Shown: positions 2,169 through 26,478 of the stretch, in pieces
Layout of the letters: each line of letters opens with the position of its first letter
How positions within the stretch are numbered: position 1 is the stretch's first letter
NCBI GenBank assembly: GCA_015063955.1
Contig: SVTD01000004.1
Location: 949-64,948, forward strand
DNA: 64,000 nt
DNA from: Oscillospiraceae bacterium
GTDB taxonomy: Bacteria > Bacillota > Clostridia > Oscillospirales > CAG-272
Reading direction: 5' to 3'
Program-made: the position numbers and the translations under genes
Notes under the pieces: generated by a model
The model's input: the letters and a program-made list of their open reading frames with translations, nothing else
What the model was told of the DNA's origin: nothing
Database searches by the model: none

Positions 2169-4496
2169 ATGTTTACAAATGACGATCACAGAATAGTTTA
2201 CGACCGCGGCGAGGGCGAAAACCGCAACTGGATCCTTTCAGAGGATCAGCTTTCCGTACAGCGCCTCGCAAAGTGCGAGTCTATCATGTGCCAGGGTAAC
2301 GGCTATATGTGTATGAGAGGCGGACTTTTTGAGGCTCCCTCCGAGGACGTAGGCCCCGTTACTATGATCGCAGGAACCTTCAACCATCACGAGGGTGACG
2401 GCTGCATGATGCTTATCAACTCCGCAAACCCTCTTTCCGTCGTTGCAACCGTAAACGGCGAGAGAATGGGCTACGATAATATCGACTACACCACCCACAC
2501 CCGCTCCCTTAATCTCAGAAACGGTCTTCTTGAAAGAAGAACCGAGTGGAAGGGCAAGGACGGCGCAAAATATCTCTGCGAGGAAAAGCGCCTCGTCTCC
2601 CTCAAGGACCGCCACCTTGCAGCTCAGAAGGTAAAGATCACTGCCGTTTCAGACGACTGCGAGATCACCCTCAAGGCAGGCATCAACGCTTCCGACGAGC
2701 TTATCCGCATAAATCAGCACTTAGTTCCCGCCGGCAGCGAGGCCTTCGGCGGTATCGTTGCCGTTAACACCCGTACAGACCAGTCAAATATCCGTATCGC
2801 AACGGCTGCAAGCCTTAAATTCTCAAAGTGCGCCGGAGAGGAAAAGACAGAGCTCTCCGACGTTACCTATACGAAGGACGACCTTACAGCATACGGCTCC
2901 GTGACCGTCAGCCTGAAAAAGGGTGAGAGCATTACCGTAAGCAAAAAGATCGCTGTATTTACAAGCCGCGACCAGGGCCGTGATTCCTTTACCTCAGATC
3001 AGCTCTTCTCCCTTGCATACGAAAAGGTAGTATGCGAAAGAGCACGCTGCATCTGCCAGGTCACCGCTGACAGCGAAAACGAATGGATCGAGCGTATCTG
3101 GAACAACCGCGACGTTATCATCGAGGGTGCAGACCGCGATCAGCTTGCTCTCAGATTTGCAATCTATCATCTCACCGCAATGTCCCCCGTTCACGATAAC
3201 AGAATGAACATTGCCGCAAAGGGTCTCTCCGGCCCCGGATACTACGGCCACACCTTCTGGGACACTGAGATCTATATGCTCCCCTACTTTATCTTCGCTG
3301 CTCCCAAGGAGGCAAGAAGCCTTCTTGAGTATCGCTATAACTGCCTTGACGCCTGCCGCGATCACGCTCACAACACGGGCTTTGACGGCGCCCGCTTCCC
3401 CTGGGAGGCTGCCTGGATCACCGACGGCGAGGCTACTCCCGTTATCTACAACACGGGCGACTACGAGATACATATCACAGCAGACGTAGCCTTCGGCGTT
3501 CACTACTACAATATGGTAACGGGCGATGAGGACTTTATGGAAAAGTGCGGCTACGAGCTTCTTCTCGACTGCGCAAAGTTCTGGCCCTCCAGAGTTTCCT
3601 ATAACGCAGAAAAGGATCAGTACGACATCCTCAACGTTATCGGCGCGAACGAGTATAAGGAAAACGTTGACAACAACGCCTATACAAACTATATGGTCCA
3701 CCAGAACATCCGGCTGGCAGTTGAGTACTGCGATATGCTCAAGGCAGAAAAGCCCGAGACCTATCAGCGCTTAAACGAGCTTCTGGATTTGGAAACTGCT
3801 TACGATAAGTGGACTCTCCTTCTGGAAAAGCTCTACCTCCCAACGGAAAACGAGGACGGTATCATCCCCGAGGACGATACGTTCCTCTCTCTCCCCAAGG
3901 TAACAAGGGACGGTATCTCAGCCTCCCTTGACCCCACCATCCGCGATAGGATCAATGAGCTTGGCGGTTTCCTCAAGGTAATGATCGGTAAGCAGGCTGA
4001 CGTCGTTGCCCTTCTTTATATGATGGAGGATCTCTTCAAGCCTGAAACAAAGGTGAAGAACTTCTATTTCTACGAGGAGTGCTGCATCCACGACTCAAGC
4101 CTTTCTCTCTCCACCTTCTCCGCCCTCGCCGCAGACCTCGGCGAAGCGAAGATGGCGTACGACCTCTTCGAGAGAGCGACTCTCATCGATATGGGTAACG
4201 TAATGTGGTCCTCAAACGAGGGTATGCACGCGGCGTCCCTCGGCGGAATGTGGCAGTGCGCGGTTCTCGGCTTCGGCGGCGTTCGCCGCTACGGCAAGGA
4301 GCTCCGAATCGATCCCAACCTCCCCGAGGCGTGGAAGAGCCTTTCCTTCGTTATCAAGTGGCACGGTCAGCGCCTTGAGATCTACGTAGATCACGAATCT
4401 CTCTCAGTTGTAAACGCAACGGGCACCGCCGACGTTCAGTTCCTCCATAAGGGACAGCTCTGCTCCGTAGGCGAGGGAATTACGATCAAGCTTTAA
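2169..4496 (+). CDS. Glycoside hydrolase family 65 alpha-glucoside phosphorylase (maltose/kojibiose/nigerose phosphorylase type)
   Basis: GH65 catalytic core: GYYGHTFWDTEIYMLPYFIFAAPKEARSLLEYRY, ARFPWEAAWITDGEATP. The ATG at 2169 has a TGAGG RBS. An alternative GTG at 2157 overlaps the upstream stop. Confidence 0.9.
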   Translation: MFTNDDHRIVYDRGEGENRNWILSEDQLSVQRLAKCESIMCQGNGYMCMRGGLFEAPSEDVGPVTMIAGTFNHHEGDGCMMLINSANPLSVVATVNGERMGYDNIDYTTHTRSLNLRNGLLERRTEWKGKDGAKYLCEEKRLVSLKDRHLAAQKVKITAVSDDCEITLKAGINASDELIRINQHLVPAGSEAFGGIVAVNTRTDQSNIRIATAASLKFSKCAGEEKTELSDVTYTKDDLTAYGSVTVSLKKGESITVSKKIAVFTSRDQGRDSFTSDQLFSLAYEKVVCERARCICQVTADSENEWIERIWNNRDVIIEGADRDQLALRFAIYHLTAMSPVHDNRMNIAAKGLSGPGYYGHTFWDTEIYMLPYFIFAAPKEARSLLEYRYNCLDACRDHAHNTGFDGARFPWEAAWITDGEATPVIYNTGDYEIHITADVAFGVHYYNMVTGDEDFMEKCGYELLLDCAKFWPSRVSYNAEKDQYDILNVIGANEYKENVDNNAYTNYMVHQNIRLAVEYCDMLKAEKPETYQRLNELLDLETAYDKWTLLLEKLYLPTENEDGIIPEDDTFLSLPKVTRDGISASLDPTIRDRINELGGFLKVMIGKQADVVALLYMMEDLFKPETKVKNFYFYEECCIHDSSLSLSTFSALAADLGEAKMAYDLFERATLIDMGNVMWSSNEGMHAASLGGMWQCAVLGFGGVRRYGKELRIDPNLPEAWKSLSFVIKWHGQRLEIYVDHESLSVVNATGTADVQFLHKGQLCSVGEGITIKL

Positions 4497-4569: not shown

Positions 4570-5220
4570 ATGAAAACAAAAGCTATAATTTTTGACCTTG
4601 ACGGTGTTATTACCGATTCTGCGAAATACCATTTCGAGGCTTGGAAGGAGCTGGCTGACCGTCTCGGCTATAAGTTCGACGAGGACGATAACGAGCGCCT
4701 CAAGGGCGTTTCCAGAATGGACTCCCTCAATATCATTCTCGAGATCAATAACGCTCTCGACGCCTTCACCCTCGAGGAAAAGGAGGCTATGTGCACCGAG
4801 AAGAACGATAACTACGTAAAGCTTATCTCCAAGGTCACCCCCGAGGATATCCTTCCCGGAATCGCAAAGTTCATGGCTGATGCAAAGGCCGCGGGACTCC
4901 GTCTTGCAGTTGCATCCGTTTCCAAAAACGCTCCCGCCCTTCTTACATCTCTCGGCATTATCGATGAGTTTGACTACATCGCAGATGCAAGAAAGATCTC
5001 AAAATCAAAGCCCGATCCCGAGATATTCACGGTATGTGCCGAGTCCCTAGGCATCGAGCCCGAATACTGCGTGGGCGTTGAGGATTCTCAGGCAGGAATC
5101 GAAGCCATCCACGCCGCAGGCATGAAGTCCATCGGCATCAACGTTACCGTGACGAGCATTGCTCCCGACCTTCCCCTCGGCTCTACCGCAGAGCTTGATT
5201 TTGCAGCTATGGTAGACTGA
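4570..5220 (+). CDS. pgmB: Beta-phosphoglucomutase (HAD family)
   Basis: IIFDLDGVITDSAKYHFEAWKELA...RLKGVSRMDSL...KPDPEIF...VEDSQAGIEAI. Its position directly after a GH65 phosphorylase is the classic pairing. Confidence 0.9.
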   Translation: MKTKAIIFDLDGVITDSAKYHFEAWKELADRLGYKFDEDDNERLKGVSRMDSLNIILEINNALDAFTLEEKEAMCTEKNDNYVKLISKVTPEDILPGIAKFMADAKAAGLRLAVASVSKNAPALLTSLGIIDEFDYIADARKISKSKPDPEIFTVCAESLGIEPEYCVGVEDSQAGIEAIHAAGMKSIGINVTVTSIAPDLPLGSTAELDFAAMVD

Positions 5221-7970: not shown

Positions 7971-8008
7971 TATCGGGAGGGCGATGCCCTCCCGATAAAT
8001 TTATATTT
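7971..8008 (+). terminator. Rho-independent terminator
   Basis: TATCGGGAGGGC-gat-GCCCTCCCGATA followed by an A/T-rich tract. Confidence 0.7.
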
Positions 8009-8106
8009 ATTATTTATTATATATTATTTATTCTTTATTCTTTAACAGACCCTAACCGCTTTTTAAAGAATAGAGAATAAAGAATAAAGAAGAAAGAATA
8101 AATGCT

Positions 8107-9364: not shown

Positions 9365-9500
9365 AGACTTGATAGAGGTGCGTCTGACAAGAGTAGTCCC
9401 GCAGGACGAAAGGGGATGACGCCGAAAGCTTCCGAAAGGATGCTTGGGACAATGCAAAATATGTATTGTACTGTCACGAAAGTGGAGCGCTGTCATGATC
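9365..9500 (+). promoter_or_regulatory. Lysine riboswitch (L-box)
   Basis: GATAGAGGTGCG...AAGAGTA...GAAAGGGGA...GCCGAAAG...TGGGAC...ACTGTCAC...GTGGAGCGCTGTC matches the conserved L-box core segments in the correct order. Confidence 0.9.
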
Positions 9501-17495: not shown

Positions 17496-18419
17496 TCAGA
17501 TAGTACCTGCTTCTGTGAGCAGCTTTAAGATAAGAGCCATACGGATATACTTACCGTTGTTTACCTGACGGAAGTATGCGGCTCTGGGGTCAGAGTCGAT
17601 AGCGGTGCTTATCTCGTTGACGCGGGGCAGGGGATGCATGATGCAAAGGTCCTCCTTGGCGGGGATAAGCTTTTCGGGAGTGAGGATATAGCTGTCCTTG
17701 AGGCGGAGATAGTCCTCCTCGTTGAAGAATCTCTCGCGCTGAACTCTCGTCATATAGAGAACGTCAAGCTCGGGCATGACCTCTTCAAGGCTTTCTGTCT
17801 GCTTATAGGGAATGCTGTTCTTCTGGAGAACGTCCTTTTTTACGTAGCTGGGCAGCTTAAGCTCCTCGGGGGAGATGAGAACGACGTTGATTCCCTCGTA
17901 GCGGGAAAGGGCTGTAATGAGGGAGTGAACCGTTCTTCCGAACTTAAGGTCGCCGCAGAAACCGATGGTGAAATTATTAAGTCTGCCCTTCTCACGGCTG
18001 ATGGTGAGAAGGTCTGTAAGAGTCTGTGTAGGGTGGTTATGGCCGCCGTCTCCCGCGTTGATAACGGGGATAGACGCGTTGTTTGCCGCAACGAGGGGGG
18101 CGCCCTCCTTCGGGTGGCGCATAGCAATAATATCGGCGTAGCAGGATACCGTCTTTGCAGTATCGGCAACGCTCTCGCCCTTGGATGAGGAGGAGCTCTG
18201 TGCCTCGGAGAAGCCGAGAACGTTTCCTCCAAGCTCCATCATAGCCGCCTCAAAGGAAAGGCGTGTACGTGTGGAGGGCTCGAAGAAAAGAGTGGCAAGC
18301 TTCTTTCTCTTGCACTTGTCGCAGTACTTGTCGGGGTTTGCGATAATATCGTTTGCAACGCCGATAAGCTCGTCTATTTCAGCGGGTGTGAAGTCGAGAA
18401 TGTCAATTAAGCTTCTCAT
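17496..18419 (-). CDS. pyrB: Aspartate carbamoyltransferase catalytic subunit
   Basis: [32 protein letters not shown]. Confidence 0.95.
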
Positions 18420-19072
18420 GCTTTTGCACCGTTTACAGCGAGGTAGTTCTTGATTCTTTCAACGTTCTCGCGGTTTGCCTCGTCCTCTTCAAGGTATTCG
18501 ATGATGTCGTAAACGTCAACAACGGAGTATACGGGGAATCCGAACTGATCGGTGATCTCGGCCATAGCTGACTTTTCGGTCTGGCCCTTTTCCTTACGGT
18601 CAACCATAACGAAGGTAGCTGCAACCTTTACGCCCTCCAAAGCGGAAAGGATCTCCATAGACTCGCGGATAGCGGTTCCTGCGGTGATAACGTCCTCTGT
18701 GATGACGATCTCCTCACCTGCCACGGGCTTGTAGCCTACGAAAACTCCGCCCTCACCGTGGTCCTTTGCTTCCTTGCGGTTAAAGAAGAAGGGAACGTCA
18801 AGACCCTCGCGTGAAAGGCCAACGCTTGTTGCAACTGCGATGGAGATGCCCTTGTAAGCAGGTCCGTAAAGAACGCACTTCTTGTTGCCTACCTTATCAA
18901 GGTAAGCCTTTGCGTAGAACTCGCCGAGCTTAGAGATCTGATCGCCCGTCTTTATCTCACCTGCATTGATGAAATAGGGGATCTTTCTGCCGCTCTTTGC
19001 GGTAAAGTCGCCAAACTTCAGAACGTTTGCGCTCTGAAGAAACTGTATAAATTCTCTCTTGTAAGATTCCAT
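18416..19072 (-). CDS. pyrE: Orotate phosphoribosyltransferase
   Basis: PRPP-binding loop [13 protein letters not shown]. The ATG at 19072 follows an AAGGAG RBS. The stop overlaps the pyrB start (ATGA). Confidence 0.93.
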
Positions 19073-19103
19073 TTTAAACACTCCTTATATTTCAATCAAA
19101 TCC

Positions 19104-19251
19104 ATTTTCGCCAAAAGCGAAAATGCACCTTCACATTCCCGAAGGGAATATTTCACATTTGCGAAGCAAATATTTCACCCGCGAAGCGGATTTCACCCAC
19201 GCTTTGCGTGGATTTCACTGCAGAATTTTTGACTTAGTCACAAAATTCTGC
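19104..19251. repeat. Phased hairpin array: six perfect or near-perfect hairpins separated by ATTTCAC (x4 exact, x1 CCTTCAC)
   Basis: Read directly from the sequence. Heptamers sit at 19150, 19172, 19190 and 19212. Hairpins: ATTTTCGC/GCGAAAAT, ATTCCC/GGGAAT, ATTTGC/GCAAAT, CCGC/GCGG, CCACGC/GCGTGG, and GCAGAATTTTTGAC/GTCACAAAATTCTGC. Confidence 0.7.
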
Positions 19252-19932
19252 CACGCAGCGCTCGTAAGCTGCAACGGGGTCCTCAGCGGCGGTGATGGGG
19301 CGGCCAACTACGATGTAGTCGCTCCCGATCTTCTTTGCCTCTGCGGGGGTCATAACTCTCTTCTGGTCGCCGATGTCGCCGTCTGCAAAGCGAACGCCGG
19401 GGGTTACTGTGAGGAAGTCCGCGCCGCATGTGTCGTGAACCTTGCCTGCCTCCAGGGGAGAGCAAACTACGCCGTCAAGACCTGCGTCCTTAGCGTTCTG
19501 AGCGTAGTGCATAACTACCTTATCGATAGGCTCCTTAATAAGAAGGTCAGCCTCCATTGTCTCCTGGTCGGTGGATGTGAGCTGAGTTACGGCGATGAGA
19601 AGGGGACGTGTGCCGTCGGGACGTGTAAGACCCTCGAGAGCGCCCTCCATCATTCTCTTTGTGCCTGCTGCGTGGAGGTTTGTCATATCTACGTCAAGGC
19701 CGGAGAGAACTGCCATAGACTTCTTAACTGTGTTGGGAATGTCGTGAAGCTTTAAGTCGAGGAAGATCTTGTGGCCTCTTTTTTTGATCTCCTTTACGAT
19801 CGCGGGGCCCTCAGCATAGAAGAGCTCCATACCGATCTTAACGAAGGGCTTTCTGCCTGTGAACTTGTCAAGAAACTCAAATGTCTTTTCTGCGCTTGCG
19901 AAGTCGCAGGCGATGATTACGTCGCGTCCCAT
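19234..19932 (-). CDS. pyrF: Orotidine 5'-phosphate decarboxylase
   Basis: FVKIGMELF, IFLDLKLHDIPNTV, VVGRPI. Confidence 0.93.
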   Translation of the reverse strand: MGRDVIIACDFASAEKTFEFLDKFTGRKPFVKIGMELFYAEGPAIVKEIKKRGHKIFLDLKLHDIPNTVKKSMAVLSGLDVDMTNLHAAGTKRMMEGALEGLTRPDGTRPLLIAVTQLTSTDQETMEADLLIKEPIDKVVMHYAQNAKDAGLDGVVCSPLEAGKVHDTCGADFLTVTPGVRFADGDIGDQKRVMTPAEAKKIGSDYIVVGRPITAAEDPVAAYERCVAEFCD

Positions 19933-26080: not shown

Positions 26081-26097
26081 AATCTACCCCTTTAAAC

Positions 26098-26207
26098 AAA
26101 AAATCTTGCCGATTCCGACAAGACTAACGCAAATGAGCGCAATTATCCTGCGCCTTGAACTATTGCCGTCTTGCCGATCTCTCTGTATCGCCTTAAAGAC
26201 TAACGAA
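26098..26207 (-). promoter_or_regulatory. pyr operon leader: PyrR-like binding hairpin plus antiterminator/terminator alternative
   Basis: mRNA sense: CGAUACAGAGAGAUCG (plus 26175-26190) resembles the PyrR loop consensus (..CAGAGAG..). CGGCAAGAC can pair with GUCUUGUCG, or GUCUUGUCGG can pair with UCGGCAAGA-UUUUUU (terminator, plus 26098-26123). Confidence 0.5.
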
Positions 26208-26365: not shown

Positions 26366-26446
26366 CAGGCTCCCTGCGACTGACGGATTATTGTGGGTCA
26401 CCACAGTGGAACAGGGGCAAAAAACTTAGGCCGACCGTCTGGGCGC
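26366..26446 (+). promoter_or_regulatory. ZTP riboswitch (pfl motif)
   Basis: GCGACUGACGG...GUGGGUCACCAC.GUGGA...linker...GGCCGACCGUCUGGGCG. The pseudoknot GACGG (26382-26386) / CCGUC (26435-26439) covaries relative to the usual GGCGG/CCGCC. It sits upstream of purine and folate genes. Confidence 0.85.
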
Positions 26447-26478
26447 ACTTAACGTACAAGGTAAGTGCGCTCTTTTTT
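26443..26478 (+). terminator. ZTP riboswitch terminator (expression platform)
   Basis: GCGCACTTA-loop-TAAGTGCGC followed by TCTTTTTT. The left arm overlaps the conserved CUGGGCGC of the aptamer. Confidence 0.8.

Follow-up and report, generated by a model that had tools for sequence, protein, structure and literature searches.

The stretch of DNA analysed here, called the window below, comprises 64,000 nucleotides (nt) of contig SVTD01000004.1 of an Oscillospiraceae bacterium (assembly GCA_015063955.1), and the element in question is an array of short hairpins located between the pyrF and pyrE genes of the pyr operon. Pfam searches on the source contig identified the upstream gene as pyrF (OMPdecase; orotidine monophosphate decarboxylase; 19234-19932, minus strand) and the downstream gene as pyrE (Pribosyltran; orotate phosphoribosyltransferase; 18416-19072, minus strand), and the neighbouring genes as pyrB (OTCace) and pyrI (PyrI). 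All coordinates are positions in the window, and the array is read in the sense of the pyr mRNA, which corresponds to the minus strand. The pyrF-pyrE spacer measures 160 nt, and positions 19103-19251 hold six self-complementary hairpins with the heptamer ATTTCAC of the plus strand (GUGAAAU in pyr-mRNA sense) between them. The sequence and its predicted folds agree with an initial annotation of this DNA, which had described six such stems, four exact heptamers and a degenerate one, with start-to-start spacings of 22, 18 and 22 nt between the exact copies (19150, 19172, 19190 and 19212 on the plus strand).

In the mRNA sense the array opens with a cap hairpin, GCAGAAUUUUGUGAC-UAA-GUCAAAAAUUCUGC (19220-19251), delimited by its fold and by the pyrF ends of relatives. 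Its loop is the pyrF stop codon (19234-19236), its 5' arm is the final 15 nt of the pyrF coding sequence and its 3' arm (19220-19233) is new sequence, with T19219 left unpaired. A hairpin over the pyrF stop had also been annotated initially, and the stop codon does form the loop, but the stem ends at 19251 (...TTCTGC), base 19252 being C and not A. Four modules follow, in which the heptamers are defined by sequence and the mini-hairpins by sequence and fold: GUGAAAU (19212-19218) and CCACGC-AAA-GCGUGG (19197-19211), GUGAAAU (19190-19196) and CCGC-UUC-GCGG (19179-19189), GUGAAAU (19172-19178) and AUUUGC-UUC-GCAAAU (19157-19171), and GUGAAAU (19150-19156) and AUUCCC-UUC-GGGAAU (19135-19149). The array is closed by a degenerate heptamer, GUGAAGG (19128-19134; CCTTCAC at 19128 on the plus strand), recognised from its sequence and from other single arrays, and by an A/U-rich hairpin, CAUUUUCGCU-UUU-GGCGAAAAUG, followed by GAUUUGAUUG (19103-19125), which was delimited by a terminator scan and likewise by comparison with other single arrays. 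The 30 nt downstream of this final hairpin contain the AAGGAG ribosome-binding site of pyrE, which stays outside the hairpins, and the sole promoter-like match in the spacer region overlaps the pyrE start codon. The spacer is the same in four contigs whose PyrF sequences are identical.

Taken by itself, the heptamer shows no enrichment, ATTTCAC occurring 13 times in the whole window against approximately nine expected. Its clustering is what stands out: four same-strand copies fall within 70 nt, whereas 300 first-order Markov simulations yielded a maximum of one (286 simulations) or two (14 simulations). In the mRNA sense the region folds at -64.1 kcal/mol (z -5.5 against shuffled sequences), with the six stems forming independent hairpins; the antisense RNA folds at -50.7 kcal/mol (z -5.9), and the DNA folds of the two strands have z-scores of -7.6 and -7.2. 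Since the z-scores are alike on both strands, folding energies are uninformative for a choice between RNA and DNA. A loose terminator scan accepted the final hairpin (19125-19103; 10 pairs, four of them G-C, tail GAUUUGAUUG) and a second match at 19145-19128 that overlaps mini-hairpin 4 and the degenerate heptamer, that is, two matches where about one is expected in shuffled sequences. The final hairpin appears weakly terminator-like. The mini-hairpins run into GUGAAAU and not into a U-rich tail. As candidate intrinsic terminators on the ATTTCAC strand they were rejected, as their tails contain only three T and, by inspection, would fail the criteria, with no composite locus (see below) scanned.

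According to the initial annotation, the motif matched none known. The spacer is nonetheless one copy of a catalogued orphan motif, Gut-1 RNA (Rfam RF01706), whose covariance model matches positions 19145-19220 of the minus strand with 62.6 bits, above the gathering threshold of 50, and with an E-value of 4.5e-10 for the window. The match covers the full model from 1 to 77, leaving the cap and terminal hairpins outside these 77 nt, and the aligned consensus reads CAaUGAAAU, hairpin, GUGAAAU, hairpin, GUGAAAU, hairpin, GUGAAAU. Gut-1 is characterised by at least three tandem hairpins split by (G/A)UGAAAU and by covariation-supported stems; the pyr copy has four exact heptamers and four mini-hairpins, and covariation supports the stems family-wide (see below). 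The original description (Weinberg et al., 2010, Genome Biol 11:R31; PMC2864571) was based on 43 representatives; every one came from a human-gut metagenome, and no sequenced organism was among the sources. It considered Gut-1 probably a non-coding RNA and not cis-regulatory, and it contains nothing on function or genomic context (PMC2864571). Full-text searches for later literature on Gut-1, RF01706 or GTGAAAT repeats found none. The pyr copy shares with published Gut-1 the repeated (G/A)UGAAAU-hairpin design, the CUUCG-type loop and the habitat, gut metagenomes and Clostridia, and differs from it in lying inside an operon on a 66-kb contig and in having four mini-hairpins together with a cap and a terminal hairpin. 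An intercistronic position on the sense strand does not agree with the small RNA, non-cis-regulatory class of Weinberg; that class is a classification and no structural criterion, and membership in Gut-1 stands.

Relatives of the locus were collected by a protein-guided scan of metagenome contigs, which provided 80 loci with PyrF 81-92% identical. Conservation in related pyrF-pyrE spacers had been chosen beforehand as a check on the initial annotation, absence from close relatives being named as counting against it, and a heptamer array follows pyrF in 0 of the 80. The same type of pyrE lies directly after pyrF in 21 relatives; in 18 of these the junction is 5-42 nt long and consists of a ribosome-binding site alone, and in the remaining three the spacer is unrelated and longer, at 79-196 nt. 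In one relative (L128; individual loci are designated by L numbers) the last 18 nt of pyrF (gcagaattttgtgactaa) are identical and lead straight to the ribosome-binding site with no array, and in three others (L129, L132, L161) the pyrF 3' end is one or two positions off gcagaattttgtgactaa and likewise lacks both the array and the 3' arm of the cap. The DNA absent from the relatives' junction extends from approximately 19095 to 19233 (minus strand), with its 3' boundary known to within about 10 nt. As relatives with the same pyrF end have short, array-free junctions, the array of about 135 nt is, judging from this comparison, a lineage-specific insertion into a junction that was formerly little more than a ribosome-binding site.

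The cap hairpin suggests how the insertion was formed. Its 3' arm, GUCAAAAAUUCUGC, matches the reverse complement of the pyrF end at 14 of 15 positions, and its 5' arm is ancestral coding sequence; the hairpin would therefore have been made by inverted copying of the target and not imported ready-made. Perfect hairpins are known to arise by template switching (PMC8794818), and because the cap hairpin copies the end of pyrF, the perfect stems probably arise by such fold-back copying at the DNA level. No second array was found by a relaxed module scan of the 64-kb window and of 312 kb of relatives' sequence, and other copies of the pyr cap joined to a heptamer are absent from IMG/VR and, except for the window's own contigs, from 324 loci. 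Note also that six relatives (L157, L169, L158, L167, L172, L177) carry unrelated repeats after pyrF, namely GGGGCGTTGCCCC-type palindromes and GAATTCAGAATTA-type short repeats, and hairpin or repeat elements seem to have landed repeatedly at the junction downstream of pyrF. Another contig, L123, does not differ from the window's own contig in pyrF, in the array and in most of pyrE (L123:1400-1600 compared with L121:4400-4600), and from the pyrE/pyrB border its identity is approximately 70%. Its pyrB encodes one product of 360 amino acids with a weak PyrI_C match, whereas the window has separate pyrB (307 amino acids) and pyrI (138 amino acids) genes. This divergence reflects either recombination or a chimeric assembly, unrelated to the array; recombination at the array itself was rejected, the break lying at the pyrE/pyrB border instead.

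To place the pyr copy within its family, species genomes, one per species, were scanned for the exact pattern GTGAWAT-N10-16 repeated three times. At least 120 loci were obtained, and the array statistics given here are drawn from the matches listed, neighbouring genes having been called with a codon-usage-scored caller. Palindromic arrays account for 70 of the 120 loci listed, the rest being ordinary tandem repeats or chance matches in other phyla, and the Rfam model confirms 23 Gut-1 matches in 20 of the loci listed. Almost all hosts are gut or rumen metagenome-assembled genomes (MAGs) labelled Clostridia, Oscillospiraceae, Ruminococcaceae, Acutalibacteraceae, Christensenellaceae or 'Eubacteriales'. 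Every array among the matches listed is intergenic. Pfam assigns the 108 neighbouring proteins to 161 families, none of which has more than four members (HTH_3; 23S_rRNA_IVP has three), and the search for an enriched neighbour gene, be it a transposase, an integrase or an RNA-binding protein, provided no candidate. In one MAG, JAZTZP, three copies agree without a difference over at least 141 nt; their 5' boundary is sharp, and the sequences upstream of it are unrelated. The same MAG has two copies of a second subfamily, adding up to at least five arrays on four contigs. The array lies within about 200 nt of a contig end in approximately 25 of the 70 loci, an effect that multi-copy sequence has on assemblies. 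Gain or loss between relatives is seen at L101, where an array follows a gene whose orthologue in the window has none.

The arrays keep a distinct relation to the genes that precede them. Among single arrays, GUGAAAU is found in the sense of the immediately upstream gene 33 times and in the opposite sense 14 times, half start within 70 nt of the upstream stop codon (median about 70 nt), and arrays often lie 16-100 nt after a co-oriented gene or transfer RNA (tRNA). GC skew on the heptamer strand is positive in 21 cases and negative in 27, a split that shows no link between orientation and replication strand. A tRNA or transfer-messenger RNA gene lies within about 150 nt of the array in 14 of 60 loci. 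In particular, 11 arrays or composites are situated directly 3' of a tRNA (CCA), at 30-150 nt and mostly with a terminator between (L005, L018, L021, L026, L034, L057, L061, L070, L071, L077, L097), and the GUGAAAU array is co-oriented with the tRNA in 11/11. Integrase arm-type sites or an att site beside the tRNA were considered for these loci and rejected, as they leave the palindromic spacers unexplained.

Viral sequences carry the motif too. An IMG/VR contig from metagenome 3300031555, the same metagenome as that of the window, is a phage head-gene fragment (L261:1-4487; portal and major head protein according to PHROGs) in which two Gut-1 arrays lie on the sense strand where genes adjoin, and in one of them the first heptamer supplies, with its UGA, the stop codon of the portal gene. 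Several other palindromic repeat families are present on the same fragment. About 14 of 120 pattern matches in IMG/VR are true arrays; blastn found no match of the window array among PLSDB plasmids and none of a composite element (see below) among INPHARED phages, and with these results a phage or plasmid origin was rejected. Gut-1 can be described as an extragenic repeat of modular build, interspersed in the genomes of gut and rumen Clostridia and found in at least one phage of these bacteria. Direct repeats that include Gut-1 arrays, with different genes between them, were noticed in three unrelated contigs (L034:171-417 and 2910-3156; L073:2277-2442 and 4995-5160; L261:144-218/2882-2956 and 1500-1573/4291-4364), at distances of 2739, 2718 and 2738-2791 nt, respectively. 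The similar spacing may be a coincidence, or it may reflect a cassette-like unit of fixed size.

Two layouts recur among the family members. Single arrays, such as that of the window, consist of a cap hairpin (often at or over the upstream stop), three to five modules of heptamer and hairpin, a variant heptamer, GU(G/U)(A/G)AGGA(A/G), and a longer A/U-rich hairpin. Many loci have instead a composite of about 190 nt with the order X, loop, X', (GTGAAAT-hairpin)x3, GTGAG, X'', (ATTTCAC-hairpin)x3, ATTTCAC, of which the Rfam Gut-1 model spans just the first half. Examples are L034:205-392, L065:5344-5534, L071:1820-2010, L045:4030-4200, L073:2276-2448, L028:489-658 and L025:1554-1727, and a parallel lineage with GTGATAT/ATATCAC follows the same composite plan. 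The segment X, 10-12 nt long, precedes the first array and is complementary over its full length to X'', which follows that array; X and X'' covary across four sequence families. Alternatively, X can form the cap hairpin by pairing with the shorter X'. In the RNAfold prediction for the composite, the heptamers of the two arms pair in nested 7-bp helices with hairpins on both sides, forming a ladder of four-way junctions. We also observed that in several composites a -35-like hexamer (TTGAAA, TTATAG or TTAAAC) comes right after the last ATTTCAC, with a TATAAT-like -10 at 17-18 nt (L005:5160-5222, L018:1790-1850, L041:993-1045, L097:4680-4737); in L005 and L041 this promoter-like match leads into a 23S-rRNA-IVP (four-helix-bundle) gene.

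The stems themselves are almost free of imperfections. Perfect palindromes make up 151 of 176 distinct scorable spacers, a percentage that is inflated by the rule that arrays were counted only if at least two spacers were palindromic. A set of 37 distinct modules of 15 nt, taken from other genomes, has 98.6% of its cells paired, compared with 53.6% in shuffled sequences and 30-43% when the partner columns are slid, and all six pairs change on both sides (104 two-sided changes in total). The claim that variable stems with a constant linker amount to a selected design held up against these numbers; more precisely, the stems are under strong constraint or are generated as perfect copies. G-U pairs occupy one of the 222 cells of the 37 modules, and the usual RNA mark of tolerated wobble pairs is missing. 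Wobble pairs are also uninformative for the functional strand, as the 176 hairpins contain 11 G-T against 7-9 A-C mismatches. The closing pair is C-G in approximately 85% of hairpins (33/37 modules), and loops follow a strand-biased code: 103 of 176 are T..C on the GTGAAAT strand (TNC 67, TNNC 36), equivalent to G..A on the ATTTCAC strand, against five in the opposite sense. On the strand opposite the mRNA this code is of the C-GNA-G type, and DNA mini-hairpins with C-GNA-G loops are reportedly extra-stable.

Several known systems invite comparison with these arrays. Repetitive extragenic palindromic (REP) elements stabilise mRNA 3' ends, influence translation near stop codons and move by single-stranded-DNA transposition. 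Like the arrays, the REP, BIME and REPIN elements of Proteobacteria, associated with the transposase RAYT, are short extragenic palindromes in many copies at the 3' ends of genes and between cistrons; they too occur singly, in tandem clusters or as inverted pairs and are present or absent between close relatives. Their hosts belong to another phylum, and in REP elements it is the palindrome that is conserved, with a GTAG foot, whereas in Gut-1 arrays the palindromes vary, the 7-nt linker is conserved and there is no GTAG. No Y1_Tnp was present among the 25 neighbour Pfam families viewed of the 161 found, whole genomes not having been searched. Random scattering as a REP-type repeat had been named initially as an outcome that would weaken the case for a dedicated pyr structure; it describes the Gut-1 family, with its copies in JAZTZP, its 161 neighbour families and its many unrelated contexts, the visible 64 kb of this organism's own genome holding one copy. 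BOX elements of Streptococcus pneumoniae, boxA-(boxB)n-boxC, are modular, intergenic, co-transcribed and strongly folded repeats from a Firmicutes host. The arrays resemble them in that a cap module at the 5' end and another module at the 3' end enclose internal modules of variable number, while BOX modules are 45-59 nt long and conserved in sequence and the array module combines a constant 7 nt with a free palindrome of 11-19 nt.

The resemblance to other systems is more partial. TRAP and HutP sites and the CsrB/RsmZ sponges also have a short constant motif at regular spacing, between or on hairpins, but the heptamer is unlike GAG/UAG triplets or GGA, no cognate protein is known, and the arrays are neither restricted to one operon nor conserved at orthologous sites. 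Two of the plus-strand stems are exactly of the d(GCGAAGC) GNA mini-hairpin type known from the phage G4 and phiX origins, here outside any origin or primosome context. Integron attC sites combine 7-nt conserved core sites with variable palindromes and are read as single-stranded DNA. The attC cores RYYYAAC/GTTRRRY and extrahelical bases are absent from the arrays, in which the heptamer is GTGAAAT, the stems are perfect over 4-9 bp and neither cassettes nor an integrase occur. CRISPR (repeats of 23-55 nt) and ToxI-like type III toxin-antitoxin repeats (34-45 nt) were rejected, given a constant unit of 7 nt, palindromic variable units, and pyrF and pyrE as the flanks. By analogy, the pyr array would work most like a REP/BIME or BOX repeat, although it belongs to neither group.

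We favour, with a probability of roughly 0.55, the explanation that the pyr spacer is a recently inserted copy of the Gut-1 interspersed hairpin-array repeat, co-transcribed with the operon and exerting a generic effect that is not pyrimidine-specific. Transcribed in the sense direction within the pyr polycistron, the array would form six independent stable hairpins with single-stranded GUGAAAU between them. These hairpins could block 3'-to-5' exonucleases or mark processing sites, and some transcripts may end at the final hairpin, which has a U-rich tail. The combination of a barrier or processing site with weak termination would uncouple the mRNA upstream of pyrE from the amount of pyrE-pyrB-pyrI and loosen a formerly tight pyrF-pyrE coupling. 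REP and BOX elements are the analogues for these proposed RNA-level effects, which have reportedly been described for REP elements. The invariant heptamer would be the recognition signature of the family, its partner possibly a protein, a nuclease or the AUUUCAC of inverted arrays; it might serve as a site for a protein or nuclease, as a unit through which inverted arrays pair or as the recognition sequence of a mobilising enzyme.

A number of points weigh against this explanation. The visible 64 kb of the genome contain one copy only, and neither a transposase nor a target-site duplication nor a terminal inverted repeat came to light, so that mobility is deduced from distribution only. The exonuclease-barrier and terminator effects would hold by analogy with REP elements, and the percentage of perfect hairpins is biased upwards as stated above. 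The invariant heptamer, together with position-specific hairpin conservation in composites across MAGs, points to a specific function beyond that of a selfish repeat, and neither the G..A loop bias opposite the mRNA nor G-U pairs being no commoner than A-C is predicted by an RNA-only constraint. In a bolder and improbable proposal, Gut-1 arrays would be an unrecognised class of modular elements in gut Clostridia and their phages, with stems made by fold-back copying of adjacent sequence, as the final 15 nt of pyrF would have been for the cap hairpin, with heptamers serving as pairing or recognition units and with single arrays, the pyr copy included, acting as half-elements that tag transcripts for one and the same machinery. 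The composites of about 190 nt would then zip GUGAAAU to AUUUCAC into the four-way-junction ladder, in alternation with the X:X'' fold. If true, this would be a new kind of nucleic-acid device and not a REP look-alike.

Among the competing explanations, the one proposed initially, a pyr-specific attenuator or a TRAP- or HutP-like multivalent site through which a pyrimidine-responsive regulator would act on pyrE-pyrB-pyrI, is now the least credible: of the outcomes named beforehand as counting against it, absence from relatives refutes it fully and scattered occurrence refutes it at the level of the family. It suits the position between pyrF and pyrE on the sense strand and the weakly terminator-like final hairpin, but the array is missing from 80/80 relatives, the same module is found downstream of tRNAs and of unrelated genes and also between the head genes of a phage, and the spacer shows no periodicity of TRAP GAG/UAG triplets at 2-3 nt or of HutP NNUAGNN sets. 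It had been stated that the array is unlike PyrR sites and that a PyrR-like site exists in the leader; indeed no PyrR site (RF00515) was matched in 18900-19450 at E up to 1, and a PyrR-like match does lie in the pyr/car operon leader (26094-26203, minus strand), albeit below threshold (33.5 bits against 54). Because of this leader match, the operon appears to keep conventional control. Only slightly more room can be given to double-stranded DNA iterons, with GTGAAAT as the site of a transcription factor or nucleoid protein at about two helical turns and the last ATTTCAC of composites abutting a -35 box. The regular 18-25 bp spacing, the -35-like TTGAAA/TTATAG and TATAAT-like -10 directly past the last ATTTCAC in L005, L018, L041 and L097, and the likeness of inverted arrays to opposed site sets would all agree with this very improbable view; it gives no reason for perfect palindromes, C-G closure and biased loops, the spacing of 18-26 bp is not locked to helical phase, and the pyr copy, lying within an operon, has no promoter to serve.

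Two further possibilities seem unlikely. One considers that single-stranded DNA is the form in which the element works or moves, the C-GNA-G or C-GNNA-G mini-hairpins on the ATTTCAC strand and the heptamer being read by an HUH/Y1-type transposase or by replication or recombination machinery, with any RNA effect incidental; the initial suggestion of a possible DNA-level role stands in this respect, with the G..A loops on the opposite strand and G-U pairs almost absent. The loop bias and C-G closure described above speak for it, and strictly Watson-Crick palindromes with G-T about as frequent as A-C mismatches fit a DNA-level origin or constraint. Identical copies at different loci, arrays at contig ends, the cap hairpin as an inverted copy of target DNA, the adjacency to tRNA genes and the position just past terminator hairpins, both classical targets of hairpin-seeking mobile DNA, speak in the same direction, as does the short direct repeat (X' and part of X'') that brackets the first array of composites as if it had been inserted into the 3' arm of a hairpin. 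Yet no Y1, HUH or other transposase is seen among the array-neighbour families viewed, orientation tracks the upstream gene and not GC skew (21:27) as lagging-strand elements should, nearest-neighbour DNA energies are equal on both strands (with parameters that ignore the GNA bonus), and a constant linker with varying palindromes is the reverse of REP. The other possibility, which we rate a little higher while still doubting it, is an RNA platform that is not pyr-specific, where rigid hairpins show GUGAAAU linkers to an oligomeric RNA-binding protein or nuclease, or let them pair, in cis or in trans, with AUUUCAC; one post-transcriptional regulator would then control all mRNAs, tRNA trailers and small RNAs that bear an array, as with a CsrB/RsmZ sponge or a regulon tag. 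An invariant heptamer between stems that are free to vary, hairpins that abut the heptamers with zero spare nucleotides, hairpin identity that is position-specific and conserved with covariation across MAGs, orientation by the upstream gene and the classification of the motif as RNA (Weinberg et al., 2010) all argue for it, as does the RNAfold pairing of composite-arm heptamers into a four-way-junction ladder. The heptamer variant is moreover the same within an array and between composite arms (GUGAAAU/AUUUCAC; GUGAUAU/AUAUCAC), although such matched variants are equally expected from an inverted double-stranded DNA site. On the opposing side there is no candidate protein and no gene family enriched beside the arrays, G-U pairs in 1/222 cells are unusual for a purely RNA-level constraint, and many copies look recent and dispensable, with relatives lacking them.

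For pyrimidine regulation little is at stake, the array being a recent passenger in one lineage. Gut-1 in turn gains its first genomic contexts since 2010, inside an operon, just past tRNA genes and terminators and in a phage head operon. Compared with its published description, it now appears as a multi-copy element that is gained and lost between close relatives, with a Rfam model that covers only half of a larger, inverted element whose long-range stem covaries, and with strictly Watson-Crick stems and a strand-biased loop code.

At gathering thresholds, the Rfam scan of the whole window produced three matches, Gut-1 and two riboswitches. The lysine riboswitch lies at 9365-9500 (plus strand; 83.6 bits), and the ZMP/ZTP riboswitch at 26366-26451 (plus strand; 55.1 bits) faces a purine-gene cluster that is divergent from the pyr operon. 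Elsewhere in the window, Tandem Repeats Finder detected two adjacent, A/T-rich tandem arrays of 7-nt units, ATTTATT x6.7 and TAAAGAA x5.6, at 7999-8044 and 8064-8102.

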